From assembly GCA_963831425.1 (NCBI GenBank), contig CAWHQC010000031.1, forward strand, positions 330,199 through 394,198: 64,000 bases of DNA, written 5' to 3'. Both the position numbers and the translations under genes were made by a program. How positions within the stretch are numbered: position 1 is the stretch's first letter; every line of letters starts with the position of its first letter. This stretch comes from an uncultured Gemmatimonadales bacterium (GTDB lineage: Bacteria; Gemmatimonadota; Gemmatimonadetes; Gemmatimonadales; GWC2-71-9). A model generated the notes under the pieces. It was not told where the DNA came from and searched no databases. It was given only the letters and a program-made list of their open reading frames with translations. Below are positions 8,668-49,496 of this stretch, in pieces.

Positions 8668-9971
8668 CCGAGCCGTTCGTGCAGGAATTCGAGGCGAGGT
8701 CCGGCACGGCCACCGCGGAGGGCCCCGAGTGGCTCGAGCCGATCCGGCAGGCAGCCATGGAGCGGTTCGCGCGCCGCGGGTTCCCGACCGCCCGCGACGA
8801 GGAGTGGCGGTTCACCCCGATCGGCCCGATCGTCCAGGGGAGCTGGCGTCCGGCTAGCGGGGCCACCGGTGAGCTCGGCCGCGAGCAGCTCGACTCGTTC
8901 ATCTTCGGCCATCCCGACTGGACCACGCTCGTCTTCGTGAACGGCGTGTATCACGATGCGCTGAGCTCGGTGGGCCCGCTGCCGGGCGGGGTGCGGGTCG
9001 CCAGCCTCGCCGAAGCACTCCGGTCGGATGGGGCGAGCATCGAACGCCACCTCGCCCGGCACGCACCGGTGGACGAGAGCCCGTTCACTGCCCTCAACAC
9101 CGCCCTCATGCGCGAGGGGGGCGTGGTGCTGGTGGGTGCGGGAGTAGATCTGGACATGCCGGTGCACCTGCTCCAGGTCAGCACGGCGGAGGCCGCGGGA
9201 ACGGTTGCCCATCCCCGGAACCTGATCGTGGTGGAACGTGGGGCGCGCGCCTCGGTCATCGAGAGCTACGTCACCCTGGCGCCGGGCCGGAGCTACTGGA
9301 CCAACCCCGTCACCGAGGTTGCGGTGGCGGCGGGCGCATGGCTGGAGCACACCCGGATCCAGCGGGAGAGCGAGGCTGCGTTCCACGTGGGCCTCACCCA
9401 GGTGGATCAGGCGCGCGACAGTCACTACCGTTCGTTCTCCTTCGCGATGGGCGGAGCGCTCGCGCGGCACAACCTGCACGTCCGGCTGAACGACGAGAAC
9501 ATCGAGTCGCTGATGTACGGGCTGTATCTCACCCGCGGCGAGCAGGTGGTGGACAATCACACGGCCATCTACCACGACCAGCCGAATTGCCGGAGCTGGG
9601 AGGTGTACAAGGGCATTCTCGACGGCCGCTCCCGCGCCGTGTTCAACGGCAAGGTGTTCGTTCAGCCCGCGGCCCAGAAGACTGACGCCAAGCAGACGAA
9701 CCGTAACCTGCTCCTGAGCGACGGTGCACGGGTCGATACCAAGCCTCAGCTCGAGATCTTCGCGGACGATGTCAAGTGCACCCATGGCGCTACCGTTGGC
9801 CGCCTCGACGATCTGGCCCGGTTTTATGCCCGGAGCCGCGGTCTGTCGGCCAGCGCCGCCGAACGCCTGCTGACGTACGCCTTCGCGGCGGAGGTGGCCG
9901 AGGAGGTGGCACTCGTGCCCGTGCGAGAGGAACTCGACCGCCTGGTATTCGAGCGGCTGGGGAGCCTCTGA
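8664..9971 (+). CDS. sufD: Fe-S cluster assembly protein SufD
   Basis: ATG 8664 overlaps the sufC stop (ATGA). SufD-like C-terminal beta-helix region (KPQLEIFADDVKCTHGATVG). Confidence 0.9.
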   Translation: MTEPFVQEFEARSGTATAEGPEWLEPIRQAAMERFARRGFPTARDEEWRFTPIGPIVQGSWRPASGATGELGREQLDSFIFGHPDWTTLVFVNGVYHDALSSVGPLPGGVRVASLAEALRSDGASIERHLARHAPVDESPFTALNTALMREGGVVLVGAGVDLDMPVHLLQVSTAEAAGTVAHPRNLIVVERGARASVIESYVTLAPGRSYWTNPVTEVAVAAGAWLEHTRIQRESEAAFHVGLTQVDQARDSHYRSFSFAMGGALARHNLHVRLNDENIESLMYGLYLTRGEQVVDNHTAIYHDQPNCRSWEVYKGILDGRSRAVFNGKVFVQPAAQKTDAKQTNRNLLLSDGARVDTKPQLEIFADDVKCTHGATVGRLDDLARFYARSRGLSASAAERLLTYAFAAEVAEEVALVPVREELDRLVFERLGSL

Positions 9972-9978
9972 TCCGCGT

Positions 9979-11217
9979 ATGACGGTCACCGCCGGCCACG
10001 AGCTCGACGTCGAGCGACTGCGGAAGGATTTCCCGATCCTCTCGCAGCGGGTCCGCGGGAAGCCGCTCGTCTACCTCGACAACGCCGCCACCAGTCAGAA
10101 GCCCCGGTCCGTGATCGATGCCATCGGCCGCTTCTACGCGGCCGAGAATGCCAATGTCCATCGCGGTGTCCACTTCCTGAGCGAACGGGCCACGCTGGCG
10201 TACGAGGCGGTGCGCGCGCGCGTGGCCCGATTCCTCAACGCGTCAGGCTCCGGCGAAATCATCTTCACCAGCGGCACGACCGAGGCGGTCAACCTGGTGG
10301 CCCAGAGCTGGGGCAGGAGCGCCGTTCGGCCCGGCGACGAACTCCTCGTCACGGCGATGGAGCACCACTCCAATCTGGTGCCCTGGCAACTCCTTGCGGC
10401 TCAGACGGGGGCGACCGTGCGCGCCGTGCCCATCACGGACGCCGGTGAGCTCGACTTCGACGCGTTCGATCGCCTGCTCACCGATCGCACCCGGCTCCTG
10501 GCGATCGCTCACGTCTCCAACGCGCTCGGCACAGTCAACCCGGTGCGCGCGCTGGTGGCCCATGCGCGCCGGCGCGGCCTGGTGACTCTGGTGGATGGCG
10601 CCCAGTCGGTGCCGCACTTGGCCGTCGACGTCCAGGCGCTGGACTGCGACTTCTTGGCCTTCTCGGGACATAAGGTCTATGGGCCAACGGGCGTCGGCGT
10701 GTTGTACGGGCGGGCGGCGCTGCTCGAGCGGATGCCGCCCTGGCAGGGCGGCGGCGACATGATCGAGACGGTCACCCTGGAAGCGAGCACGTTTGCTCCA
10801 CCACCGGCCCGATTCGAGGCCGGAACGCCGAAGATCGCTCAGGTAATTGGGCTGGGCGCCGCGCTCGACTACGTGGCCGCCGTGGGACTCGCGCAAATCG
10901 GCGCGCGGGAAGAAGAACTGCTGGCGTATGCCACCGATCAGGTGAGCACCGTGGAGGGGATTCGTCTCATCGGCACCGCGCGGGACAAGGCCGCGGTGCT
11001 CTCGTTCGTGGTCGAAGGCGTGCACCCGCACGACGTTGCGGCCGTGCTCGACGATGAGGGCGTCGCGATCCGGGCGGGCCACCACTGCGCCCAGCCGGTC
11101 ATGAGTCGGTTCGGGGTCCCGGCCACCGTGCGCGCGTCCTTCGCGTTCTACAACACCCGGGAGGAAATCGACGTGCTCATCCGCGGTCTCCGCCGGGTCA
11201 GGACGCTGTTCGCCTGA
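9979..11217 (+). CDS. sufS: Cysteine desulfurase SufS (class II aminotransferase)
   Basis: HHSNLVPWQ, SGHKVYGPTGVGVLYG (PLP lysine) and RAGHHCAQP (active-site Cys). Confidence 0.9.
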   Translation: MTVTAGHELDVERLRKDFPILSQRVRGKPLVYLDNAATSQKPRSVIDAIGRFYAAENANVHRGVHFLSERATLAYEAVRARVARFLNASGSGEIIFTSGTTEAVNLVAQSWGRSAVRPGDELLVTAMEHHSNLVPWQLLAAQTGATVRAVPITDAGELDFDAFDRLLTDRTRLLAIAHVSNALGTVNPVRALVAHARRRGLVTLVDGAQSVPHLAVDVQALDCDFLAFSGHKVYGPTGVGVLYGRAALLERMPPWQGGGDMIETVTLEASTFAPPPARFEAGTPKIAQVIGLGAALDYVAAVGLAQIGAREEELLAYATDQVSTVEGIRLIGTARDKAAVLSFVVEGVHPHDVAAVLDDEGVAIRAGHHCAQPVMSRFGVPATVRASFAFYNTREEIDVLIRGLRRVRTLFA

Positions 11218-29555: not shown

Positions 29556-30443
29556 GTGCTCCATGCCCGGCGCCTCCCGGGAGCACCGGGCGGCGCTGTC
29601 GAGCGTCCGCCACGCCATCTATCCCAACCGCTTCTCTCTCGGGGCGCTGCCAGCGCGCCCGCGCCCTCTTCCTCGAGCGACTCGCCCGTGACCAACAGTC
29701 CCTACCGCCGGCTCGACGACAACAAGCTGCCCACCGAGGACGAGCAGCTCCTGGAGAGCCCGTCTCCGCAGCGGCCGGAACAGCTATTCCAGAAATCGGA
29801 TTCCTGGCGCGTCCTCCGCATCATGGGCGAATTCGTGTGGGGGTTCGATCATCTGGCCGACGTGTACGAAGGGGTGACGGTCTTCGGCTCCGCCCGGACG
29901 ACGCCCACCGACCCGCTGTACATGAAGGCCGTGCAGACAGCGAAGCTGCTGGCGCAGGCCAGCATTCCCGTCATCACGGGCGGTGGCCCCGGCATCATGG
30001 AGGCGGCCAATCGCGGCGCCAGGGAGGGGGGCGGGCTCTCGATCGGGTGCAATATCGAGCTGCCGTTCGAGCAGGGGTCGAACGCCTACCTCAGCCGCAG
30101 CCTCAACTTCAAGTTCTTCTTCGTGCGGAAGACGATGTTCGTGAAGTATGCCACCGCGTTCCTCGTCTTTCCCGGCGGGTACGGCACGTTGGATGAGCTG
30201 TTCGAGGCGCTCACGCTCATCCAGACCGGGAAGGTGAAGCATTTTCCGGTGATATTGTTCGGCAGCGCGTACTGGGCCGGGCTGGTGGAGTGGCTCACCC
30301 GCACGGTGGCGGAGGAGCGCAAGATCAATCCGACCGACCTCCTCCTCTTCCGCGTCACCGACGATCCGGCGGAGGCGGCGCGGATCGTCATCGAGGCGCG
30401 GGCGGCGAAGCCCGAAGACGCCGCGGCCCGCATCATGGGATGA
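29556..30443 (+). CDS. LOG / TIGR00730-family Rossmann-fold nucleotide-binding protein
   Basis: [14 protein letters not shown] and [12 protein letters not shown] motifs. The start is uncertain; GTG 29688 ([11 protein letters not shown]) is plausible. Confidence 0.8.
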
Positions 30444-30459
30444 GCAACGGGATGAGCAG

Positions 30460-31635
30460 ATGACCAGACCTTCGGACCAGTATCTGCGCGGCCAGCGCAT
30501 CGAGCCCACGCCCATCGCGGGCGGGGAGACCGTCGCCACGCTGATCGACAACGCGTTCCTGGCCTACAATGCCGGCCGGCTGCGCGAAGGCTGCCAGCTC
30601 TTCACCCAGCGCATGCTCGAGCCGGGCACCACCGTGGGAATGACCCTCACCGGCGCCATGACGCCGGCGGGACTCGGGATGAGCTGTCTCATCCCGCTCA
30701 TGGAAGCGGGATTCGTGGACTGGGTCATCTCGACCGGAGCCAACCTCTACCACGACGCGCACTTCGCGCTCGGCCTCGCGATGCACCGCGGCACGCCCAC
30801 GGCGAACGACGTCGAGCTCCGCGACAAGGGCGTCGTGCGGATCTACGACATCTTCTTCGACTACAGCGTGCTGCTCTCGACCGATGCGTTCATTCGGGAG
30901 GTATCCGCCCGGCCCGAGTTCCAGCGCCCCATGAGCTCGGCGGAATACCACTACCTCCTCGGCGGCTTCGTGCGCGAGCGTGAGCGGGCTCTCGGCCTCT
31001 CGCGCCGATCGGTGCTGGCCGCGGCGCACGAGCTCGAGGTGCCGCTCTACACCAGCTCGCCGGGGGACAGCTCGATCGGGATGAACGTGGCGGAGCAGGC
31101 GCTGGCCGGCAGCAAGCTCCGGTTCGACGTCAGCGCCGACGTGAACGAAACCGCGAGCATCGTGCTCGAGGCCAAGCGCACCGGCGGCCAGAGCGGCGTG
31201 CTGATCGTCGGCGGTGGAAGTCCCAAGAACTTCATGCTGCAGACCGAGCCGCAGATTCAGGAGGTCCTGGGCATCGACGAGCGGGGCCACGACTACTTCC
31301 TGCAGATGACGGACGCCCGTCCCGACACCGGCGGTCTCAGCGGTGCCACGCCCGCGGAGGCGGTGAGCTGGGGCAAGATCGACCCCGACCAGCTTCCAGG
31401 CACCGTCGTGGTGTACACCGACAACTCGATCGCCCTGCCGCTGCTCACGGCGTATGCCATGGAGAAGCACGCCGCCCGTCCGCTCAAGCGGCTGTACGGA
31501 AAGCGCCAGGCGATGATGGACCGGCTGGTGCAGGAATACCAGGCGGCGCTGGCCTACCGTGACGAGCGCGCGGCGCAGTCGCTCAGCCACATGCACCCGG
31601 GCGCCGGGGGAGCCGAGACGGCGGCGCGGCGGTGA
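30460..31635 (+). CDS. Deoxyhypusine synthase family protein (DHS-like / homospermidine-synthase-like)
   Basis: 391 aa with [21 protein letters not shown] and GGGSPKNF blocks typical of the DHS family. Confidence 0.75.
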
Positions 31636-33125
31636 CCCCGCCGCCCACCCGGGCCTCTAGCTGGTACGCACTCGGCCTGCTGGCGCTCATCAATCTCCTC
31701 AACTACGTCGACCGCAATGTCATCTATGCCCTCTTCGAACCGATCAAGCGCGATCTCGCGCTGACCGACTCGCAGCTCGGCTGGCTGGGCTCCGCCTACA
31801 TCTTCGTCTTCTCGGTCTCGGCCCTGCCGTTCGGTGTGCTCAGCGACTTGCGCTCGCGCCGGGCGGTGATCGCCGGCGGGGTGGCGGTCTGGAGCGCGTT
31901 CACGTTCCTGAGCGGGCTGGTCAACAGCTTCGGCCAGCTCTTCACGTGCCGGGCCGTCGTCGGCGTGGGAGAGGCGGCCTACGGACCCGCGGCAGCGTCG
32001 CTCGTGGCCGACTACTTCCCGGCGCGTGGCCGCGCCGTGGCGATGGGGATTCTCTCGTCCGGCATCGCGCTGGGCGGCGTGCTCGGGCTCCTGCTCGGCG
32101 GCCATCTCGAGGGGATCTACGGCTGGCGGGTGGCGTTCATGACGGTCGGCGTGCCCGGCTTCGTCCTGGCGCTGCTCGTGTCACGCCTCGTGGATCCGAC
32201 ACGCGCCCCGGCACAGCTGACCGTGCGCTCCTTTCTGCGTGACTTCGAGCTCGGTGTGCGGCCGCTGGTGCGGAACCTGTGGCCGCTGCTCGCGGCCGTT
32301 GTCCTGGGCGGCGCGGCGGCGTACCGGCTCGACCGCCGCTATGGCGCCAGCTCCAAAGTGGATCTCGCCGTCTTCAGCGCCGCGCTCGGGCTCGGGCTCA
32401 CGCTCACGGTCTTCCGCTGGGTCCGGCGCACGCCGGCGGACGTAGCGGCGGATACCTCGTTCGGCAGCGGCATCAGCGGCGCGTTCGACGAGATCGTGCG
32501 GGCGGGCCGCACGGTGCTCCGGACGCCGACGCTGGTCTACGTCTTTCTCGCCGGCGCGATGATCTCGTTCGGCCTGAACGGCATCGTGGGCTGGGGCCCG
32601 ACGTTTGTCTCCCGCGAGCTCGACCTGAGCGCCGCCGAAGCGGCGGCTCTCCTGGGAAAATGGGGGTTGATCTCGGGGACCGCGGGCACGCTGTTCGGCG
32701 GCGTGTTCGCGGACTGGCTTCGGCGCCGCTGGGAGACGGCGCGGGTGATCGTCGTCGCGCTCGGGCTGCTGCTCGGCGGGCCGCTGGCGCTCTGGCTGCT
32801 CACCATTCGTGACCCGGTGCTGTTTCAGGCGGTGTTCGCGATCGCATTCTTCTGCCTGTCCTGGTATACGGGGCCGATGACGGCCGTGATCTTTGACGTC
32901 GTGCCCGCGCGCATCAGCGCGACGGTCGCGGGGGCCTATCTGCTCTTCATCCACCTCGCGGGTGACGCCATCGCGTTGCCGCTCGTCGGCAGCCTGAGCG
33001 ACCGGTTCGGCCTCGATCGCGCGATTCTGCTGTTGCCGCTGGTGGTGATCGTCGGCGGGGCCGTCGTGCTCGGCGCGATGCGGACACTGGGGCGGGACAT
33101 GCACCGCGAGCTGGTGGAGAGGTGA
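31632..33125 (+). CDS. MFS transporter (Spinster-like)
   Basis: GTG 31632 overlaps the DHS-like stop (GTGA). Contains [15 protein letters not shown] and about 12 TM segments. Confidence 0.8.
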
Positions 33126-40209: not shown

Positions 40210-40247
40210 CTCCACCTTGAAAATCCAACTCTCCGAAGGAGGTGGAG
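40210..40247 (+). promoter_or_regulatory. Hairpin able to sequester the EF-G paralog Shine-Dalgarno sequence
   Basis: CTCCACCT (40210-40217) is the exact reverse complement of AGGTGGAG (40240-40247). The second lies inside AGGAGGTGGAGG, immediately before ATG 40251. Confidence 0.35.
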
Positions 40248-40250
40248 GCC

Positions 40251-42296
40251 ATGAAGGTCTATGGCTCCAACGACATCCGGAACGTGGCGTTCGTCGGCCA
40301 CGGAGCCAGCGGGAAGACGTCACTCGTGGACGCCCTGGCCTGGGTGTCCGGCAGCAGCCGCCGGCATGGCGGCATCAAGGAAGGCACCACCCTCACCGAC
40401 TACTCCCCCGACGAGATCGCCCGGCAGCACTCGATCAATCTCGCACTCGGCTTCGCCGAGTGGATGGATACCAAGCTCAATCTCATCGATACCCCCGGCT
40501 ACCTCGACTATTTCGGCGAGGTCGTGACCGGCCTGCACGCCGCCGATGCCGCGGTGGTCGTGGTGAGCGGCACGAGCGGGGTCGAGGTGGGCACCGAGAA
40601 GGCCTGGGAAGTCCTCGATCAGCTTCATCTGCCCCGTGTCCTGTTCGTCTCGCTCATGGACAAGGAGCATGCGGATTTCGAGCGGGTGTTCATGGATGTG
40701 AAGGCGCATCTGACGCCGAGGGTCGTGCCGGTGGAAATCCCGATCGGCGACGGCCCGGACTTCCACGGGATCATCAATCTCTTCTCCGGCCACTGCCACC
40801 AGTACACGAAGGGCGCGCTCAAGGGGGAGGGCGAGGTCGTCCCCATCCCCCCGGAGTTCCAGGGGCGCTACCGCGAATACAGCGAGCACCTGACCGAGGC
40901 GGTTGCCTCGACCGACGACGACCTGATCGAGCGCTATCTCACCGGCGAGGAGATCCCCCGGGAGCAGTTCATCGGCGCCGTCAAGCAGGCGATGCTGGCC
41001 GGACAGATCGTCCCCCTCTTCTGCGGAAGCGCCACGCTGACCTACGGGCTCCGCACCCTGCTGCGCAAGATGGTCGAGCTGTTCCCGTCACCCGCGGAGC
41101 TCGCCCCGCCCGCGGACACCCCGCTTCTCGGCCGTGTGTTCAAGACGATCTCCGAGCCCCACGTGGGCGACGTGAGCCTGTTCCGGCTCTTCACCGGCGA
41201 GCTCCGCAACGGGGACGAGGTCTGGAACGCCGAGCACGAGGTGGCCGAGAAGCTCAACCACCTGTCGATCCAGCAGGGCAAGGAGCGCATCGAAGTGGCG
41301 CAGCTCTGCGCCGGGGACATCGGCTCCGTGGCCAAGCTCAAGGACACGCATACGGGCGACACCTTCTGCCGTCGCGACGCGCCGGTGCGCCTCCCGCCGA
41401 TCCCGCTGCCGGAGGCGGAGACCACCTCCGCCGTCGTCGTGAAGCAGCGCGGGGAGGAGGACAAGCTCGCGGCGGGCCTCCACAAGCTGCACGAGGAGGA
41501 CCCCACCTTCCACTTCGAGTACAACTCCGAACTCGGCCAGACGCTGATCCACGGGATGGGCGAGCGGCACTTCGAGACGATCCTGCAGCGGCTCGAGCGG
41601 AGGTACGGAGTGCACGCCGAGCTGGCGCGTCCCCGCGTCGCGTACCGCGAGACGTTGAAGGGCAAGGCGGAAGGGCAGGGCAAGCACAAGAAACAGAGCG
41701 GCGGACGCGGCCAGTACGGCGACTGCTGGATCCGGATCTCACCCCGGCCGCGCGGCGCGGGGTACGAGTTCGTGGACAGCATCGTCGGCGGCGTGATCCC
41801 CAACAAGTACATCCCGGCCGTGGACCGCGGGGTGCAGGAGTCGGCCGAGCGGGGCGTCGTGGCGGGGTACCCCATGGTGGACTTCCGGGTGGAGTGCTAC
41901 GACGGCTCCTACCACGACGTGGATTCGAATGAGATGTCGTTCAAGATGGCCGGGATTCTGGCGTTCCGGAACGTGGCCTCCAAGGCGCACCCGGTCCTGC
42001 TCGAGCCGCTGGTGGAAGTGACCGCCTGGGCGCCCGACGAGCTGCTGGGGGAAGTGATGGGCGATCTGAGCGCGCGGCGCGGCCAGATCCTCGGCACCGA
42101 ACCGGACGGCCGGCTCACCAAGGTGCGCGCGATCGTGCCGGAAGCCGAGCTGTACCGCTACTCCACCACGCTCCATTCGATTACGCACGGCCGCGGCACC
42201 CACCGGGAAAAGTTCCACGGGTACGCGGAGGCGCCGCCGGAGGTGACGGCAAGGGTGGCGGCCGAGAACGGAAAGGAGCAGGCGGTGGCCTCGTGA
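40251..42296 (+). CDS. Elongation factor G paralog (EF-G2-like translational GTPase)
   Basis: GHGASGKT (G1), DTPG and LMDK (G4 variant). Full EF-G domain order through the C-terminal LEP...EAP region. Confidence 0.85.
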   Translation: MKVYGSNDIRNVAFVGHGASGKTSLVDALAWVSGSSRRHGGIKEGTTLTDYSPDEIARQHSINLALGFAEWMDTKLNLIDTPGYLDYFGEVVTGLHAADAAVVVVSGTSGVEVGTEKAWEVLDQLHLPRVLFVSLMDKEHADFERVFMDVKAHLTPRVVPVEIPIGDGPDFHGIINLFSGHCHQYTKGALKGEGEVVPIPPEFQGRYREYSEHLTEAVASTDDDLIERYLTGEEIPREQFIGAVKQAMLAGQIVPLFCGSATLTYGLRTLLRKMVELFPSPAELAPPADTPLLGRVFKTISEPHVGDVSLFRLFTGELRNGDEVWNAEHEVAEKLNHLSIQQGKERIEVAQLCAGDIGSVAKLKDTHTGDTFCRRDAPVRLPPIPLPEAETTSAVVVKQRGEEDKLAAGLHKLHEEDPTFHFEYNSELGQTLIHGMGERHFETILQRLERRYGVHAELARPRVAYRETLKGKAEGQGKHKKQSGGRGQYGDCWIRISPRPRGAGYEFVDSIVGGVIPNKYIPAVDRGVQESAERGVVAGYPMVDFRVECYDGSYHDVDSNEMSFKMAGILAFRNVASKAHPVLLEPLVEVTAWAPDELLGEVMGDLSARRGQILGTEPDGRLTKVRAIVPEAELYRYSTTLHSITHGRGTHREKFHGYAEAPPEVTARVAAENGKEQAVAS

Positions 42297-42313: not shown

Positions 42314-43438
42314 CTACGCCGTCTTCCGCCCGGGCCTGGAGCGCGGCTTCCGCCCTTTCTTGAGCGTGATCACTCCCGCCTCCTCCCGCGGCTGCCGGTA
42401 CACGTACTGCTGCCCCCGGAAGTTCCGCAATACGACCTCTTCGTCGCTCATGCTCACCACGTACTCCGGGAGCAGCGGGATCTTCCCGCCGCCGCCCGGC
42501 GCGTCGATGACGAAGTACGGGTTGGCCAGGCCGCTGGTCCAGCCCCGGAGCGCCTCCATGATCTTGATCCCGGTCTGGATGCTGGTCCGGAAGTGCTCGG
42601 CGCCGGCCACCTGGTCGGCCATATAGATGTAATAGGGCCTCACCCGCGCCATCAGTAGCCGCTGCATCAGCAGCTTCATGACGGCGGGGTCGTCGTTCAC
42701 GCCCTTGAGCAGCACCGTCTGGCAGCCCATCGGGATGCCGGCATCGGCCAGCATGCCGAGTCCCTTGACCGCGGCCGGGGTGAGCTCGTCGGGGTGATTG
42801 AAGTGCGTATTGATGAAGAGCGGGTGGAACCGCTTCAGCGTGGCGCAGAGCTCGGGCGTGATGCGCTCGGGGAGGTGGCACGGTACCCGGCTCCCGATCC
42901 GGATGATCTCGAGGTGCGGGATGGCGCGGAGCCGGGTGAGGATGGCGTCGAGCCGGCGGTCGTTGAGGAGCAGCGGATCGCCGCCCGACATGATGACGTC
43001 CCGGATCTCGGTGTGCTGCTCGAGGTACTGGAAAGCACTCTCGAACTGAGACATCGGAATCTTCTCGGGATCGCCCACCTTCCGGCGCCGGGTGCAGAAG
43101 CGGCAGTAGCTGGCGCACACCGGACTCACGAGGAACAGAGCCCGGTCGGGATAGCGGTGCGTGATGTTGGGGACCGGACTGTCGGCATCCTCGTTGAGCG
43201 AGTCCACGATGCCATCCACGACGTCGAGCTCGTCGACCGTGGGCACGTACTGCCGCCAGATCGGATCGTCAGGAGACTTGATCAGGTCCACCATGGCCGG
43301 TGAGATCCGGAACTCGAAGTTCTCCGCCGCCTGGCGAAGGCGGTCGAGATCGGGGAAGTGCTCGGGCCCGAATCTGGTTGCGAGGGCCTCGAGCGACCTG
43401 ATCGAGTTGGTCTTGAGAACTTCCTGCCAGGTTTCCAT
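42314..43438 (-). CDS. KamA-family radical SAM 2,3-aminomutase (lysine 2,3-aminomutase-like)
   Basis: 374 aa with CASYCRFCTRR (CxxxCxxC), MSGGDPL and a KamA-type N-terminal region (FRISPAMVDLI, PIWRQYVP). Basic C-terminal tail. Confidence 0.85.
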   Translation of the reverse strand: METWQEVLKTNSIRSLEALATRFGPEHFPDLDRLRQAAENFEFRISPAMVDLIKSPDDPIWRQYVPTVDELDVVDGIVDSLNEDADSPVPNITHRYPDRALFLVSPVCASYCRFCTRRRKVGDPEKIPMSQFESAFQYLEQHTEIRDVIMSGGDPLLLNDRRLDAILTRLRAIPHLEIIRIGSRVPCHLPERITPELCATLKRFHPLFINTHFNHPDELTPAAVKGLGMLADAGIPMGCQTVLLKGVNDDPAVMKLLMQRLLMARVRPYYIYMADQVAGAEHFRTSIQTGIKIMEALRGWTSGLANPYFVIDAPGGGGKIPLLPEYVVSMSDEEVVLRNFRGQQYVYRQPREEAGVITLKKGRKPRSRPGRKTA

Positions 43439-43448
43439 TGGGGCCTCG

Positions 43449-43497
43449 GTCGTCAGTCGTCGGTCGCCAGTCGCTGGTCGTCAGTCGTGGGTCGCCG
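43449..43497. repeat. Seven tandem heptads GTCGYNN filling the GNAT-kamA spacer
   Basis: GTCGTCA GTCGTCG GTCGCCA GTCGCTG GTCGTCA GTCGTGG GTCGCCG, read directly from the sequence. Confidence 0.9.
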
Positions 43498-43505
43498 CTG
43501 TCGAC

Positions 43506-44000
43506 TCACGCCTGAGGACTGACGACTTTCACGTACACCACCTGATCATCCCCCGGCGCGTAAAAATCGGGGATGCGGGATGCGACCCGGTACCCGCGGG
43601 CTTCGTAGAAGGCGCGGGTGGGCGCGTACTCCGGCCGGCCGGCCGTTTCCACGACGATGAGCCGGGCCGCGCCGGCCAGCCGGCGCTCCATGGCCCGCAC
43701 CATGGCGGAGCCGATCCCGCTGCCGTGGAGCGCCGGATCGACCGCCATCCAGTAGAGATCGTAGGTGCCGAGGGTACAGGGGGTGGGACCCCAGCAGATC
43801 CAGCCGGCGAGGCGGCCGTCGTGCTCGGCGCCGAGTGCCAGATAGTCGGGCGAACCGGCCATGGCGCCATTGAACACTTCCAGCGCCACCGCGATCTCGT
43901 CTTCGCGGAACAGCCCGACGGCACGGCTGATCTCCTCGATGCGGCCGCGATCGGCCGCGGTGAGGTTTCGGAGCGACGCCAGGGTGAGCGTGCCGCTCAC
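43506..44000 (-). CDS. GNAT family N-acetyltransferase
   Basis: 164 aa. GTG 44000 overlaps the upstream stop (GTGA). The acetyl-CoA motif reads VDPALHGSGIGSAMV, followed by FYEARGY. Confidence 0.8.
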   Translation of the reverse strand: MSGTLTLASLRNLTAADRGRIEEISRAVGLFREDEIAVALEVFNGAMAGSPDYLALGAEHDGRLAGWICWGPTPCTLGTYDLYWMAVDPALHGSGIGSAMVRAMERRLAGAARLIVVETAGRPEYAPTRAFYEARGYRVASRIPDFYAPGDDQVVYVKVVSPQA

Positions 44001-45007
44001 GCGGCCGACACCCCGCTGACCAGGGCAGCGGCGGCGCTGTGGCTCTGGGAGCGCATGAGGGCCTCGTCCACGATCTGCATGACGAGGTCGTCGTAGCTCC
44101 AACCGAAGGCTCGGCCCATGCGGGCGAGCCCGGCGTTGCTCGAGAGGTCGGGGCAGGGATTCACCTCGAGCACGTACGGCTGGCCGTCCTCGTTGACCCG
44201 GAGGTCCACCCGTCCGTACCCCTCGCCACCTGCCATGTGGAACCATGCCTGCCGCGCCACCTCGCCGATCCGGGTGGCGAGCTCGTCCGGCACCTCGGCC
44301 GGGCAGATGGGCACGGTTCCTTCGTCTTCAGGACTTCCCGGAATCCACTTGGCGGCGTAGCTCACGATGGGCCACGTGCCGTCGGGCATGCCGTCGAAGC
44401 GGATCTCGGCCACCGGCAGCATCCGCTTGCCGACGAAGCCCACGTTGAACTCCCGGCCGGCCACGTATTCCTGTACCAGCACTTCGTCGAACTGCTCGAG
44501 CATGAGGGCGACGCGCTTCTTGAGCGCCCGCTTGGAGGTGCACACCGCGCCGTTGTCGATCCCGACGCTCGCGTCCTCGGCCGACGGCTTCACGATGGCC
44601 GGGAGCGGGAATTCGGCCGGGGTCTTGTTGGCCTGCGCCAGCATGAACGCCGGGACCGGCAGCCCGGCCGCCGAGAGCAGCGTGTTGGCGACGTGCTTCC
44701 GGTGGCAGATGGTGGTGGGCCAGGTGCGGCAGCCGGTGAACGCCACTCCCGCAAGCTCCAGCGTGCCGACGACCAGGTCTTCGTACCGGGCGTGGCCGTT
44801 GATCCCCTCGCAGAGATTGAAAACGAGATCGACCCGGCGGACGCGGCTGAGCCAGCGGAAGTCGCCCAGGCGAACGGGGAGCAGTTCGACCTCGTGCCCA
44901 CGGCGCCGGAGGACGGCGCGGACCTCGTGGACATTGCCTACGACCGCTGCCACGTCCTGCGGGCTCCACTCGTCGCTGCCGGCATCGAACAGGATCGCCA
45001 CTTTCAT
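43997..45007 (-). CDS. ATP-grasp ligase, D-alanine--D-alanine ligase family (336 aa)
   Basis: Starts at ATG 45007 (MKVAILFD). Contains IVKPSAEDASVGI, LVQEYVAGREFNV and GRVDLRVNEDGQPYVLEVNPCPDLS. Confidence 0.8.
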   Translation of the reverse strand: MKVAILFDAGSDEWSPQDVAAVVGNVHEVRAVLRRRGHEVELLPVRLGDFRWLSRVRRVDLVFNLCEGINGHARYEDLVVGTLELAGVAFTGCRTWPTTICHRKHVANTLLSAAGLPVPAFMLAQANKTPAEFPLPAIVKPSAEDASVGIDNGAVCTSKRALKKRVALMLEQFDEVLVQEYVAGREFNVGFVGKRMLPVAEIRFDGMPDGTWPIVSYAAKWIPGSPEDEGTVPICPAEVPDELATRIGEVARQAWFHMAGGEGYGRVDLRVNEDGQPYVLEVNPCPDLSSNAGLARMGRAFGWSYDDLVMQIVDEALMRSQSHSAAAALVSGVSAA

Positions 45008-46113
45008 CACGCCACCTCCGCCAGAAGGGAACGGCCGCTGATCCGACGCCAGGCGATATCGGCGACGGTGCGGATCAGCTCGTCGTAGCTCATCCCGGCG
45101 GCCCGTGCGGCCTTTGGGAAGCAGGAATTGTCCCGCGGGTCGGGCAAAATGCCCGGAAGCGGATTCAATTCGACGACCATGGGGCGATTGGCCGCGTCGC
45201 AGCGGATATCGACGCGGCACCAGTCGCGGCAGTCCAGCGCGTGATACGCCGCCAGCGCGGCGGCGCGAACATCCTCGGCCAGCGCTTCAGGGATCCTGGC
45301 CGGGCAGTCGAAAATCTCCAGCGGATGACTCGGCGAGTCCCACAGCCACTTGGCTTCGTACCCGTAGATCGGCGGTGCACCCTTCGGCAGCGTTTCAAAG
45401 TCCATGCCGACGATCGGCAGACAGCGCGCCTCGCTGCCGTTGCCGATCACCGCGACCGTGAACTCGGGCCCCGCGAGGTAGGTCTCGATGAGCACGGGCT
45501 CGGCATAGGTGGCGAGCAGCTTCGAGACCTGTTTCACGAGCTGGCTCCGCGTCTTGCAGACGCTCCGGACGCTGACGCCCTTGCCCGAGCCCTCGAAGGC
45601 CGGCTTGACGAAGAGCGGAAAGGGGAGCTGGACCTTTCGCGCGTCGTCGGGACTCCGGGCGAGGACGAACGGCGCCGTGGGCACGCCGTGGTAGGTCATC
45701 ACTTCCTTGGCGCGCCGCTTGTCCAGGCTGAGGCCCAGGGTCAGCGGATCCGACGCGTGACAGGGCACGCCGAGAAACTCGCAGATGGCGGGGACGTGCC
45801 CCTCGCGATTCGGACCGTAGAGACCCTCGGCGATGTTGAAGACGAAATCGGGCCGGGTGAGCGCGAGCCTGGCGGGAAAGCTCGCGTTGGCCTCGAGGCG
45901 GTAGACCCGGCCGACGGTGCTCAGCGCCCGCTCCACCGCATCGATGGTGGCGGGCTCATCCCACTCGGCGTAGAGATCGGGTTGGGGAAGATCGTCGCGG
46001 AGTGCCCGCCTGTCGGGCTCGTCCGGAGAAGGGGAGTCGGTCGTGGCCCCGGCCGCTGCATCCGCCGGTGCATCTGGCTTGAGATTGAAGGCGAGTCCGA
46101 TCCGAACTGCCAA
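45007..46113 (-). CDS. ATP-grasp ligase, D-alanine--D-alanine ligase family (368 aa), with a low-complexity insert after the first strand
   Basis: TTG 46113 is preceded by GAGGGG. Contains RIGLAFNLK, FVKPAFEGSGKGV, LIETYLAGPEFTV and CRVDIRCDAANRPMVVELNPLPGI. The stop overlaps the next ATG (TGATG). Confidence 0.75.
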   Translation of the reverse strand: MAVRIGLAFNLKPDAPADAAAGATTDSPSPDEPDRRALRDDLPQPDLYAEWDEPATIDAVERALSTVGRVYRLEANASFPARLALTRPDFVFNIAEGLYGPNREGHVPAICEFLGVPCHASDPLTLGLSLDKRRAKEVMTYHGVPTAPFVLARSPDDARKVQLPFPLFVKPAFEGSGKGVSVRSVCKTRSQLVKQVSKLLATYAEPVLIETYLAGPEFTVAVIGNGSEARCLPIVGMDFETLPKGAPPIYGYEAKWLWDSPSHPLEIFDCPARIPEALAEDVRAAALAAYHALDCRDWCRVDIRCDAANRPMVVELNPLPGILPDPRDNSCFPKAARAAGMSYDELIRTVADIAWRRISGRSLLAEVA

Positions 46114-46127
46114 GAGCGCCCCTCTAC

Positions 46128-46155
46128 AAAAAAGGCCGTCCACGAGAGACGAGCC
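46128..46155 (-). terminator. Rho-independent terminator after thyX, 15 nt before the ATP-grasp start
   Basis: The minus-strand RNA reads GGCUCGUC-UCUCGUG-GACGGCC, a 7-bp stem with one bulge, followed by UUUUUU. Confidence 0.65.
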
Positions 46156-46225: not shown

Positions 46226-46978
46226 CTAGACCTTGTGATATCCGACCCGTCCCGCTTCGCTGCCGTCCGTCGAGCGAAAGATCTCCACGTCGTCGAACAG
46301 CGACGGCGCCTCGCGCTGGAGCACGCGGAGGCAGGCGATGGCCATCCGGCGAATCTCCAGCTCGGCGCCTTCGCCCAGGCGAAGTTCGAGCATGGTGCGC
46401 CATGCGCGGACGTTGGCACTAGCCACGATCTTCACCTCGGTGGCGTTGGGGAGGACGCTACGCGCCGCTTCGCGTGCCATCTTCCGGCGGTGCACCGTGT
46501 GTTCCACCCACTCGTAGCGGATCATCAGGTGCTCCACCGCCGCGACGTAGGCCGATTGGGCCGCCTGGACCTGCCGAGTCCACTCGGCCTCGAGCTCGGT
46601 GTCGCCGAGGATGGCGGGAGGCATCACGAACGCGGCGTGGGACTCGTCCACATAGCGCTGGGAAAGCTGCGAAAAGCCCCAGCCGGCCCGATGCCGCACC
46701 AGCTCGTGGCTGCAGCTCCGCGATATGCCCTCGATGAGCATCACGTACGTCGCGTGCTCGAACACCGAGCCGTGGCCCTGCTTGAGGATGTTCCGCAGGT
46801 ATTCGCCCGTGGTGCGGCCGGCCGGGTTGTGCTGGCTCATGTAGCACAGTCGCCCGGCGAACTCGGCGATCCGCTCGCCGTCACTTGCCTCGCCCTGCCA
46901 CTGGACGGGCAGATGGCCGGGCTCGAGGAACTGTGGGCGGGCGATGAGGGTGACTCGGGGCTCGCGAATGATGTCCAT
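46226..46978 (-). CDS. thyX: FAD-dependent thymidylate synthase
   Basis: 250 aa with the ThyX motif SHELVRHR and SQRY. Confidence 0.9.
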   Translation of the reverse strand: MDIIREPRVTLIARPQFLEPGHLPVQWQGEASDGERIAEFAGRLCYMSQHNPAGRTTGEYLRNILKQGHGSVFEHATYVMLIEGISRSCSHELVRHRAGWGFSQLSQRYVDESHAAFVMPPAILGDTELEAEWTRQVQAAQSAYVAAVEHLMIRYEWVEHTVHRRKMAREAARSVLPNATEVKIVASANVRAWRTMLELRLGEGAELEIRRMAIACLRVLQREAPSLFDDVEIFRSTDGSEAGRVGYHKV

Positions 46979-46992
46979 GGGGATCTTGGGTG

Positions 46993-47077
46993 GTGAGTCG
47001 TGAGTCGTGAGTCGCGGGTCGCAGATCGGGCCGTGGGCTGCACGCCCCGCGACTCATGACTCACGACTCACGACTGT
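46993..47077. repeat. Long inverted repeat built from GTGAGTC/GACTCAC heptads
   Basis: GTGAGTCGTGAGTCGTGAGTCGC (46993-47015) matches the reverse complement of GCGACTCATGACTCACGACTCAC (47049-47071) at 22 of 23 positions. GGG/CCC extends the stem. The right arm overlaps the last codons of the FAD oxidase gene. Confidence 0.9.
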
Positions 47078-48673
47078 CCGTTCGTCCGCCAGCTCCAGCC
47101 GGTTCCGCGCGTAGCCGCCGCGCTGTTCGATCCGCCGGAGCTCGCGGGCGATGTCGTCCGGGAGCGCGAGGGCATGGTCGCCCACCTTGAGGCGGCTCAC
47201 GGGCGGCTCGCCGGAAGGAAGAATAACGCCGGGGTTGAGGATGCCGAGCGGGTCGAAGGCGCGCTTGAGGCTTTCGAAGAGCCGGAGGATCTCCGACCCG
47301 TAGATCCGCGAGAGGAGCCCGGCCCGGAGTCGGCCATCGCCGTGCTCGCCCGATGGCGTGCCGCCGAGCCGGACCAGCGCGTCGGTCACCACGTCGAGCA
47401 GCCCGGCCACGGCTTCCTCCCACCCCGCGCGGCCGACTTCGGGCAGCAGGTTCACGTGGACGTGGCCGTCGCCCGCGTGACCGAAGATCACCACCGCGAG
47501 CTCCCGCGCCGCCGCCGCCTCGCGAATGGCCCGGATGTACTCGCCCATCCGCGGCAGCGGCACGCAGCCGTCCTCGATGACCTGAAGGGAGCGGCGCGTC
47601 TCGGGCAGACCCGCCAGGATCGGGCTCGCCGCGTGGCGCAGCGCCCAGAGGCGCTCGGCCGCCGCCGGGGTGAGCCCGGTGTCCACGCTCGTGGCCCAGG
47701 GCGCCACCGCGCGCGCCGCCCGCTGGGCCGCTGAGCGGGCGGCGGCAGGGTCATCCCGCTCCAGCTCGACCAGCAGCACCGCCTCCGCGCCAGTCTCGCC
47801 GACCAGCTCGAGGAAGGTGCGGTCGAGCAGCTCGACGGCGGAGGGCTCGTGCTCCAGCAGCGCGGCCACGGCCTCGCCCAGCACATCGAGCGTCGGGAGC
47901 GCCACGCGGAGCCCCGCCCGCGCCGCGGGCAGCGGATCGAGCCGCCACTCCGCCGCGGTGACGAAGCCGAGTGTTCCTTCGGCGCCGATCACGAGGTCGA
48001 CCAGGTCGCCCGATGCGAGCCAGGCGTCCAGCGCGTAACCCGAGGCGTTCTTGCGGGTGCGCGGGAACCGGGCGCGCACGAGCTCGGCGGCCGCGCGGAT
48101 CGCCGGCGCGGCGTCCGCCTCGAACCGCCCGAGGGCGAGCACGCGGGGCTCGGCCGGCCGGCCGCGCCGGAGCTCGGTCACCTGGCCATCAGCGGTGACG
48201 AGCTCCACCGCCTCAACCCAAGCGCGAACGCTGCCGTACCGCACCGTGCGCGCACCCGCCGCGTTGGTGGAGAGCATGCCGCCGAGCGTGGCCCAGCGGC
48301 CGCTCGAGGGATCGGGCGGCAGGCGCAGTCCCGCGCGATCCGCGGCGATGTTGAGCTCCGCCAGGGTGACGCTCGCACCGGCCCGCGCGCGGCGAGCCGG
48401 CCCGTCCACCTCCAGCCGCCGCGGCAGGGCGGTGAGGTCGACCACGATGCCGTCTCCCACGTTGCCGCCGCCCATCGCGCTGCCGGCGCCGCGCGGCACG
48501 AGGGCTACGCGGTGCGCCGAGGCCCAGTGGGCGAGCGAGGCGACGTCTTCGCGGTCCCGCGGCACGCACACCGCCGCCGGCAGGATCCGGAAGATCCCGG
48601 CGCCTTCGGCGTAGGCGGCACGCGCGCGATGGTCGGTTCGGAAGAGGCCCCGGATCGGCGGGGGAGGCAGCAT
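47054..48673 (-). CDS. FAD-binding oxidoreductase (GlcD / FAD-linked oxidase family)
   Basis: Starts at ATG 48673. FAD-binding PCMH-type region (LVPRGAGSAMGGG) and C-terminal GTPSGEHGDG. Confidence 0.8.
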   Translation of the reverse strand: MLPPPPIRGLFRTDHRARAAYAEGAGIFRILPAAVCVPRDREDVASLAHWASAHRVALVPRGAGSAMGGGNVGDGIVVDLTALPRRLEVDGPARRARAGASVTLAELNIAADRAGLRLPPDPSSGRWATLGGMLSTNAAGARTVRYGSVRAWVEAVELVTADGQVTELRRGRPAEPRVLALGRFEADAAPAIRAAAELVRARFPRTRKNASGYALDAWLASGDLVDLVIGAEGTLGFVTAAEWRLDPLPAARAGLRVALPTLDVLGEAVAALLEHEPSAVELLDRTFLELVGETGAEAVLLVELERDDPAAARSAAQRAARAVAPWATSVDTGLTPAAAERLWALRHAASPILAGLPETRRSLQVIEDGCVPLPRMGEYIRAIREAAAARELAVVIFGHAGDGHVHVNLLPEVGRAGWEEAVAGLLDVVTDALVRLGGTPSGEHGDGRLRAGLLSRIYGSEILRLFESLKRAFDPLGILNPGVILPSGEPPVSRLKVGDHALALPDDIARELRRIEQRGGYARNRLELADERTVVSRES

Positions 48674-48701
48674 GGGCCAAAGGTAACTATCTTGTGCCGG
48701 T

Positions 48702-49496
48702 ATGTCGGACAGCTCCCGCGCGCAGCTCATCCACATCGACGTGGACCGCCGGCTCGGCCATGAGTGGGACGAGTGGGACGGTCGGCCGCTGCCGAACCAC
48801 GGGAACTACGACTCCGCTCCGTCACTCTTCTTTCTCTGGTCCGCGCTGGCGATCGTGCTCGGCCTGGGCGTGGTCGCGGCCGGGCTCTTTCTTTTCGCTC
48901 CCCGTCTTGCGGGCCTGGCTCCCTGGCTTCCGCGCTCGCTCTGGATGGCGCTCCTCGCGCTGGCGATCGTGCTCGTCGCCTGGTGGGGCGTGCTCCTCCT
49001 TTCATACGCGTCCGGCCGAGCGCTGCTGCCCGAGCGCCTCGCCGAGCGCGGGCCTTTGCTTCGGCTGATGCGGCTCACGTCGCGGGTCGCGGGGCGGTTC
49101 GGCCGCAGGGACTGGGTCGAGAACGCATCCGTGAAGGTGTACAACACCCTGGCGCTGCTCCGCGGGCGGAAGGTCGGCAAGGGCGAGCTGCTGCTGCTGA
49201 TCCCCCGCTGCCTCTCGAAGGACACGCTGGACGGCGTGCTGGGGATCGCTGGCAAGTACGGTGTCCCTGTGTTCGTAGCCACGCGCGGACAGCTCGCGCG
49301 CCGGGTGATCCGGGAGCGCCGGCCGCGCGCGGTCGTGGCGGTGGCATGTGAGCGGGACATGGTGAGCGGGTTGCACGACGTGGCGGGGAAGATTCCCGTC
49401 CTCGGCCTCACGATGACGCTGCCCTCGGGCCCCTGCAAGGACGCGGTGCTGAATCTCGGGAAGCTCGAGGAGTGGGTGCAAGCGTACGTGATCTGA
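48702..49496 (+). CDS. DUF116-like membrane protein
   Basis: N-terminal TM pair. The C-terminal region has LLLLIPRCL and AVACERDMVSG, as I recall for DUF116. Confidence 0.5.
   Translation: MSDSSRAQLIHIDVDRRLGHEWDEWDGRPLPNHGNYDSAPSLFFLWSALAIVLGLGVVAAGLFLFAPRLAGLAPWLPRSLWMALLALAIVLVAWWGVLLLSYASGRALLPERLAERGPLLRLMRLTSRVAGRFGRRDWVENASVKVYNTLALLRGRKVGKGELLLLIPRCLSKDTLDGVLGIAGKYGVPVFVATRGQLARRVIRERRPRAVVAVACERDMVSGLHDVAGKIPVLGLTMTLPSGPCKDAVLNLGKLEEWVQAYVI

Follow-up and report, generated by a model that had tools for sequence, protein, structure and literature searches.

A conserved cassette of a lysine 2,3-aminomutase-type enzyme and twin ATP-grasp ligases, a candidate route to beta-lysine-derived amides

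What does a KamA-family aminomutase do beside two ligases that resemble D-Ala-D-Ala ligases (Ddl)? This question is raised by four minus-strand genes in a stretch of 64,000 nucleotides from an uncultured Gemmatimonadales bacterium (GenBank assembly GCA_963831425.1, contig CAWHQC010000031.1, positions 330,199 to 394,198; hereafter the window), which encode two ATP-grasp ligases, a small GNAT N-acetyltransferase and a KamA-family radical SAM aminomutase dependent on pyridoxal phosphate (PLP). The original prediction, made from the letters of the window, was that these genes make a beta-amino acid, ligate it and N-acetylate it, thus going beyond the two-gene ablAB logic, and this view is supported by the co-conservation of the genes, by the lysine-type character of the aminomutase and by the departure of the ligases from Ddl. 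In our comparison of relatives, KamA and the two ligases emerged as the core of the cassette and the GNAT as a frequent accessory. We see about an even chance that the four genes work as a single cassette in the synthesis of a small amide compound derived from beta-lysine, perhaps a stress or compatible solute.

Conservation of the four genes

We sampled the best 80 of 581 confirmed relatives, all of them Gemmatimonadota, in which ligase 1 shows 56-99% identity to that of the window; 55 of these loci carry enough downstream sequence to be evaluated. Ligase 1, ligase 2 and the GNAT gene are always adjacent in this sample, the GNAT being present at 55/55 evaluable loci, and the order ligase 1, ligase 2, GNAT, KamA was observed at 45/55. 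The closest genome contig (DATAHW010000025.1, assembly DATAHW01; L002) encodes a 99% identical ligase 1 in a like gene order. Of the four proteins KamA varies least, with 76-92% identity across the phylum. Two contigs, from metagenome-assembled genomes labelled Bacillota (L024) and Solirubrobacterales (L009), carry a Gemmatimonadales cassette at 80-85% identity together with FAD oxidase/thyX synteny, and were probably mis-binned.

A metagenome scan seeded on a non-Gemmatimonadota member yielded 80 loci at 43-50% identity, one of which is the query's own contig (100%). These loci are taxonomically broad, with a G+C content of 33-73%, and 29 have enough flank to be evaluated. KamA adjoins ligase 1 in 26/29 of them, ligase 2 is found in 27/29 and the GNAT in 20/29, while the exact order of the window (ligase 1, ligase 2, GNAT, KamA) recurs in 19/29. 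Seven single-domain representatives from outside the phylum were inspected singly, and KamA adjoins the ligase or ligases in all seven. One of them (L090), whose ligase 1 cluster includes a member labelled as a Nitrososphaerales archaeon and whose contig bears an eIF2-alpha domain gene, has ligase 2 encoded on the other strand, after which come KamA, ligase 1 and the GNAT; another (L091) has the same gene order as the window. The GNAT is absent from the remaining five (L092-L096), yet KamA still stands beside the ligase or ligases. Among these, L092 has a PlsC-type acyltransferase after KamA in place of the GNAT, and L093 (1169-8416) combines KamA, ligase 1 and ligase 2 with two additional ATP-grasp_4/ATP-grasp_3 proteins of 440 and 427 aa and with an Orn/DAP/Arg decarboxylase. 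L094 carries an elongated KamA (569 aa), L095 is archaeal, with the cassette lying among ribosomal-protein and tRNA-synthetase genes in a DPANN-like context, and L096 is an Anaerolineae contig with one ligase and KamA. One of the seven represents an uncultured-bacterium lineage. A Patescibacteria-labelled homologue also exists.

These counts show that the association of the genes lies far beyond chance, and co-conservation is the decisive evidence for one conserved cassette. The four-gene neighbourhood proposed from the window is therefore co-conserved well beyond the phylum. As a fixed unit, the set of four held in part: it recurs across bacteria and archaeal-type contigs, whereas the GNAT is accessory and some Gemmatimonadota loci lack KamA.

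The aminomutase, the ligases and the acetyltransferase

The KamA protein has the Pfam domains Radical_SAM and LAM_C and passes the general subfamily model TIGR00238 (277.1 bits, cut-off 199.2). Among the NCBIfam subfamily models, the AblA/lysine 2,3-aminomutase model TIGR03820 scored best (438.8 bits, cut-off 525.4), the shortfall being due largely to the absence of the C-terminal ~45 residues. The models for glutamate 2,3-aminomutase (386.7 bits, cut-off 650), AblA-like-2 (317.6 bits, cut-off 396.25) and arginine 2,3-aminomutase (309 bits, cut-off 600) followed, and the EpmB model TIGR03821 scored lowest (227.1 bits, cut-off 369.3). By profile hidden Markov models (HMMs) the enzyme thus comes closest to the AblA/lysine model and does not cluster with EpmB. 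No EpmA-like gene of the Pfam tRNA-synt_2 type occurs in the called-gene tables of the loci, for which no search aimed at EF-P or EpmA themselves was made.

Comparison with the solved Clostridium lysine 2,3-aminomutase 2A5H (48% identity; phmmer 3e-109) provided a view of the active site. The radical SAM cluster CxxxCxxC reads CASYCRFC, with the equivalents of C125, C129 and C132 kept, and R134, E236, D293, D330 and K337 (2A5H numbering) are all kept as well. In the solved enzyme K337 binds PLP, Arg134 the carboxylate, and Asp293 and Asp330 the epsilon-ammonium group of the substrate. Ruzicka and Frey reportedly described in 2007 that the glutamate enzyme has Lys and Asn replacing the two Asp residues; the window KamA, unlike what would be expected of a glutamate enzyme, keeps both. 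The zinc site is missing, as C268 is replaced by Asp and a basic tail free of Cys stands in place of the C-terminal Cys triad. Since the lysine-binding residues are intact, the enzyme appears to be a lysine 2,3-aminomutase-type protein that has lost the zinc ligands, with lysine as its predicted substrate. The original prediction had held the choice between Lys, Glu and Arg to be unreadable by eye; the lysine-binding residues largely settle it, with arginine or ornithine as a residual possibility. The aminomutases of the seven cassettes from outside the phylum agree in large part, as the HMM profile was alike in the 5/5 scanned and the substrate residues are kept in 6/7. The C-terminal part of the elongated L094 protein (9485-11194) resembles an incomplete repeat of the KamA barrel and C-terminal region, with a second KPYY-like motif.

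Both ligases match the Pfam family Dala_Dala_lig_C, and a match to the RimK domain (PF08443) was found in neither, confirming the Ddl architecture, rather than the RimK/microviridin type, that had been assigned to them. The N-terminal Ddl domain PF01820 was not detected in either ligase by the Pfam scan, and both miss every NCBIfam Ddl cut-off, the best model, NF002378, giving 168.9 bits for ligase 1 and 140.5 bits for ligase 2 against a cut-off of 243. Their sequence relatives above noise in the PDB are exclusively small-molecule Ddl or Van ligases. Structure prediction of ligase 1 (AlphaFold, pLDDT 89.5) confirmed the Ddl fold, with Ddl enzymes as the top PDB neighbours in Foldseek (TM score ~0.8 normalised to the target, 25% identity); the substrates are not readable from the model.

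A profile built from 26 diverse members of the ligase family was compared with the Ddl enzymes of the PDB. All 26 members agree in the columns of the catalytic Lys, Arg, Asp and Asn. Two residues of the Ddl substrate site, His63 and Tyr216 in the numbering of E. coli DdlB, are altered: the Ddl segment ALHGRGGEDG corresponds to FNIAEGLxGxxRES in the family profile, with His63 replaced by Glu and two extra residues, and the omega-loop YDY(D/E)AKY corresponds to YSYEAKW, with Tyr216 replaced by Trp. In ligase 1 the family motifs read FNIAEG and YGYEAKW. Glu96 (His63 position) and Lys255 are invariant across the 26 members, and Trp256 (Tyr216 position) is the majority residue, being invariant only in the two smaller alignments. 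The profile also shows a 4-residue insertion in the substrate loop after NPLPG, and the N-terminal ~30 residues of the family do not align to PDB Ddl. With invariant catalytic columns and altered substrate positions, the ligases look catalytically intact, with a substrate site differing from that of Ddl.

The two ligases share 31% identity. In a neighbour-joining tree, the orthologues of ligase 1 and ligase 2 form two separate clades (lig1 and lig2), both kept across lineages, and ligase 2 groups with orthologues from six other lineages, apart from lig1. One protein, P0251, whose halves were cut at the midpoint for the tree, resembles a lig1-lig2 fusion. By these comparisons the two are distinct, non-redundant ancient paralogs. 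The family is large, comprising 933 representative clusters at E<1e-30, and its members are publicly named 'D-alanine-D-alanine ligase', 'ATP-grasp domain-containing protein' or 'hypothetical protein'; for the cassette branch, the Ddl label is probably wrong.

These results bear on the possibility that both proteins are ordinary peptidoglycan D-Ala-D-Ala ligases and that their clustering with KamA is incidental. The Dala_Dala_lig_C matches and the Ddl fold would agree with such a role. It is nevertheless effectively refuted, and we give it next to no credence, given the scores below every Ddl cut-off, the undetected PF01820 domain, the Trp and Glu at the Tyr216 and His63 positions, the presence of two diverged copies in tandem, the occurrence of the cassette in archaeon-labelled or archaeal-type contigs (L090, L095) and the very strong linkage to KamA.

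The GNAT matches the Pfam families Acetyltransf_1, Acetyltransf_7 and Acetyltransf_10, and in the PDB it matches 2R7H (99 bits), a structural-genomics GNAT of unknown function. In NCBIfam at E<=1e-3 it has three weak matches, to RimI, PRK03624 and AAC(6'), and none to the AblB model (TIGR03827). A tblastn search of plasmids with the GNAT returned stand-alone GNATs only, and one with ligase 1 returned single rhizobial ATP-grasp genes; both were uninformative with regard to KamA. Rhizobial symbiosis plasmids thus have one ATP-grasp gene of the family, ~38% identical; on pNGR234a of Sinorhizobium fredii NGR234 (L087, 6773-9855), it lies near a CapA-family gene with insertion sequence elements around it.

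Arrangement and surroundings of the cassette

The four genes span 3.8 kb of the window, which has a G+C content of ~69%, and no further copies of the ligases, the GNAT or KamA were found within its 64 kb (Table 1). Their description as tightly coupled minus-strand genes was borne out, with all starts, lengths and overlaps and the repeat-filled spacer recovered as claimed. A Shine-Dalgarno-like GAGGGG lies 8 nt upstream of the ligase 1 start codon, and the N-terminus of the protein agrees with those of its homologues (M-x-I-A-L-x-Y-N). The start codon of ligase 2 and the stop codon of ligase 1 share one base (TGATG), and the start codon of the GNAT overlaps the stop codon of ligase 2 by 4 nt (GTGA).

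Table 1. Coordinates of the cassette genes and adjoining features in the window
Feature	Position	Strand	Remarks
Ligase 1 (ATP-grasp, Ddl-like, lig1 clade), 368 aa	45007-46113	-	TTG start; PF07478 1e-33
Ligase 2 (ATP-grasp, Ddl-like, lig2 clade), 336 aa	43997-45007	-	ATG start; PF07478 4e-28
Small GNAT N-acetyltransferase, 164 aa	43506-44000	-	GTG start; PF00583, PF13508
KamA-family radical SAM/PLP aminomutase, 374 aa	42314-43438	-	CASYCRFC; TIGR00238, TIGR03820
Intergenic spacer between GNAT and KamA, 67 bp	43439-43505		7/14-bp tandem repeat
Terminator-like hairpin and T-run between thyX and ligase 1	46136-46152	-	consensus match only
Elongation factor G (EF-G) paralog	40242-42296	+	convergent; end 17 bp from KamA stop

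Tandem Repeats Finder placed the spacer repeat at 43446-43494 (period 14, 3.5 copies), with a CGACTGACGACC-like unit when read on the coding strand. The spacer ranges from ~15 to ~175 bp among close relatives and so behaves like an expanding microsatellite. We considered an RNA element in the spacer and rejected it, as the fold is no better than that of shuffled sequences (z = -1.7) and the length is unconserved among relatives. The hairpin between thyX and ligase 1 weakly suggests that the four genes may form a separate transcription unit that it bounds upstream; the terminator scan found 2 sites against a shuffled-sequence mean of 1.8, i.e. no excess.

Upstream lies a block of DUF116, FAD-linked oxidase (GlcD-like) and thyX genes (46226-48736, 48702-49496), which is syntenic in most of the Gemmatimonadota loci sampled; at one locus (L001), thyA and folA occupy the position of thyX. 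The convergent EF-G paralog lies where the original prediction had put it, and it was rejected as a functional partner, as it lies anywhere between 17 bp and several kb from KamA and is missing at L001. Membership in a known defence system was likewise rejected, as none of the four proteins matched the anti-phage models of PADLOC. About 10 kb from the cassette lies a bacterial deoxyhypusine-synthase-like gene (PF01916, 30460-31635), with a LOG/'possible lysine decarboxylase' gene (29556-30443) on one side and an MFS transporter gene (31632-33125) on the other. A gene of the deoxyhypusine synthase family is also found near the fused double ligase, described below, of the Halobacteriovorax locus (L083).

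Candidate pathway, alternatives and known systems

In the pathway that we propose, KamA would convert free L-lysine into beta-lysine by radical SAM/PLP chemistry, a step that is well supported. Each ligase would then make a single amide bond by way of an acyl-phosphate. Beta-lysine would be joined via its carboxylate, or other amino acids would be placed on its beta-amino and epsilon-amino groups, and the product would be di- or tripeptide-like. As beta-lysine has a single carboxylate and two amines, the need for two different ligases would be accounted for. As an optional tailoring step, the GNAT would cap a remaining free amine from acetyl-CoA. We infer this product chemistry, be it that of a peptide, an oligomer or a conjugate, and likewise its acetylation. 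The role is the weakest part of the account: by analogy with the AblA/AblB and Ngg/AsnO pathways, a stress or compatible solute of the cytoplasm, or some comparable small metabolite, would be the most economical guess.

Several observations weigh against this account. The substrates of the ligases cannot be read from sequence, and the cassette contains neither a transporter nor a regulator suggestive of osmoadaptation. In vitro, KamA enzymes are sensitive to oxygen, whereas Gemmatimonadales and Nitrososphaerales are mostly aerobes. The aminomutase of the Anaerolineae contig (L096), the exception among the seven, has Gln at the D293 position, and the GNAT could serve in self-resistance rather than biosynthesis. 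At 3/55 of the evaluable Gemmatimonadota loci (L011, L015, L016), all from Gemmatimonadales genomes, the KamA slot holds a 462-aa KamA-family protein that is only 28% identical, a non-orthologous replacement within the same superfamily. KamA is missing from a further 7/55, with six loci lacking it entirely (L029, L032, L037, L042, L049, L053) and one retaining only a fragment (L045). With KamA absent or only 28% identical at some loci, the ligase pair and the GNAT may work without a locally encoded KamA. The 462-aa protein of L011 (12706-14094) carries the motif CPQYCGHC and falls below all NCBIfam subfamily cut-offs. L032 has a SusC-like TonB-dependent receptor downstream, and its GNAT bears an insertion of ~45 aa.

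The loci without KamA raise the possibility of two pathways side by side, with the ligases acting on something unrelated, for instance a D-amino-acid dipeptide or a polyamine conjugate. The persistence of the ligase pair and the GNAT at these loci would fit this explanation, as would related fused double ligases that pair with an S58 peptidase and lack KamA. We nonetheless think it quite improbable, because KamA is linked to ligase 1 in 26/29 diverse loci and keeps its place beside the ligases at loci without the GNAT (L092-L096), and because none of the three weak NCBIfam matches of the GNAT is to AblB. The fused double ligases, of ~670-675 aa, were found in Myxococcales (L082, 8001-11198) and Halobacteriovorax (L083, 8001-11175), with a Peptidase_S58 gene (DmpA/BapA family) directly after; these loci of Myxococcota and Bdellovibrionota have neither KamA nor a GNAT. 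In the tree both fused halves group with lig1, indicating an independent duplication, and the combination with Peptidase_S58 looks like a separate, uncharacterised synthetase/peptidase system. At another locus without KamA (L136, 4519-10414), an agmatinase and a pyruvoyl arginine decarboxylase gene lie upstream of the ligase pair; downstream, both this locus and L128 (2888-6474), which is also without KamA, carry genes for a class I methyltransferase and a GT4 glycosyltransferase. The arginine decarboxylase and agmatinase of L136, together with the decarboxylase of L093, suggest that the ligase family may act on small basic amines or amino acids.

A role in protein modification would have the ligases attach beta-lysine to a protein lysine or terminus, either independently of EpmA or in the manner of RimK/LysX, with the GNAT capping the product. 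An acyl-phosphate mechanism would presumably yield the same amide as EpmA, the top NCBIfam match of the GNAT is RimI, though far below cut-off, the archaeal cassette (L095) lies among ribosomal-protein and tRNA-synthetase genes, and the EF-G paralog is found downstream at many Gemmatimonadota loci. On the other hand, the ligases are of the Ddl type, with small-molecule Ddl/Van ligases as PDB relatives and no RimK domain, and the cassette has no conserved gene for a carrier or target. The variable distance of EF-G, its absence from L001 and the lowest score of the EpmB model speak in the same direction, and we regard protein modification as unlikely.

The cassette might also produce a secondary metabolite, such as oligo-beta-lysine or another polycationic, antibiotic-like compound, with the GNAT conferring self-resistance as in streptothricin producers. 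Streptothricin-type compounds contain beta-lysine chains, and GNATs detoxify them by acetylating the beta-amino group, which offers a precedent. The L093 locus, expanded by two ATP-grasp genes and a decarboxylase gene, also resembles a small biosynthetic gene cluster. This explanation, in our estimate a rather improbable one, has to contend with housekeeping synteny (FAD oxidase, thyX) conserved across the whole phylum, with occurrence in apparently small-genome lineages (the Patescibacteria-labelled homologue and the DPANN-like context), with the lack of an exporter in the cassette and with strong purifying selection on KamA (76-92% identity), which is more typical of core physiology.

Returning to the amide pathway, we tentatively extend it, at somewhat less than even confidence, to the view that the cassette represents a widespread, unrecognised class of beta-lysine metabolites made without ribosomes or nonribosomal peptide synthetases in Bacteria and Archaea; EpmA-independent beta-lysylation of protein is the less likely variant. 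Such metabolites would be N-acetyl-beta-lysyl peptides or doubly N-acylated beta-lysine, and relatives of the twin ligases at other loci would then be general 'two-amide' machinery for small basic amines. If true, this would constitute a fourth use of beta-lysine and add a branch to amino-acid-derived metabolism, one whose genes fit into a compact cassette spread across Gemmatimonadota, Nitrososphaerales-labelled contigs, a DPANN-like archaeal context, Anaerolineae and unnamed lineages. Its interest lies in this breadth across Bacteria and Archaea and in the ease of testing, as 3.8 kb is well suited to heterologous expression. Searches of an open-access library, from which most subscription journals are missing, brought up no description of KamA combined with twin ligases; the novelty would lie in the joining of beta-lysine metabolism with ATP-grasp amino-acid ligases, of which an earlier description may exist.

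Among known systems, EpmB and EpmA, which act on elongation factor P (EF-P), resemble the cassette in that a KamA-family enzyme supplies beta-lysine and an amide bond is then formed. In the window, by contrast, the partners are ATP-grasp ligases and not a paralog of lysyl-tRNA synthetase, and the cassette is found in archaeal-type contigs as well. Microviridin/graspetide clusters combine the RimK-type ATP-grasp ligases MdnB and MdnC, which act on a precursor peptide made by the ribosome, with the GNAT MdnD. An operon with a pair of ATP-grasp ligases and a single GNAT is thus common to both, whereas the window ligases are of the Ddl type and are accompanied by KamA; furthermore, the gaps between the window genes, consisting of 1-nt and 4-nt overlaps and the 67-bp repeat-filled spacer, leave no room for a precursor gene. 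The negamycin cluster was considered as a parallel and set aside as irrelevant, as it contains no ATP-grasp gene.

The window ligases have the same fold as Ddl and Van enzymes, along with the catalytic residues of ATP-grasp proteins and the Lys of the omega-loop, and an acyl-phosphate mechanism on small amino-acid substrates would be expected. They differ in the 2-residue and 4-residue insertions in the substrate-site loops and in forming a diverged pair beside KamA. The fused double ligases followed by Peptidase_S58 belong to the same branch of the ligase superfamily and likewise keep two modules together; unlike the window pair, both of their halves are lig1-sided, and they are accompanied by an S58 aminopeptidase-type gene instead of KamA and the GNAT.

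The osmolyte N-acetylglutaminylglutamine amide (NAGGN) is made by Ngg and AsnO through N-acetylation from acetyl-CoA and ATP-dependent formation of a peptide bond, and its operon also contains a peptidase (PMC8070244). The same non-ribosomal logic of N-acetylation and ATP-dependent peptide-bond formation is proposed for the window. Ngg, however, is a single bifunctional protein, no beta-amino acid is involved, and the window GNAT has no significant match to it in NCBIfam. In methanogens, AblA and AblB make the compatible solute N-epsilon-acetyl-beta-lysine (PMC12776343). The window shares with this system a lysine 2,3-aminomutase-type gene beside an acetyltransferase gene, and its KamA scores best against the AblA model. 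It differs in that the GNAT has no AblB match and that KamA lacks the C-terminal zinc site and stays below the AblA equivalog cut-off. The window also adds two ATP-grasp ligases, which are the more constant partners of KamA.

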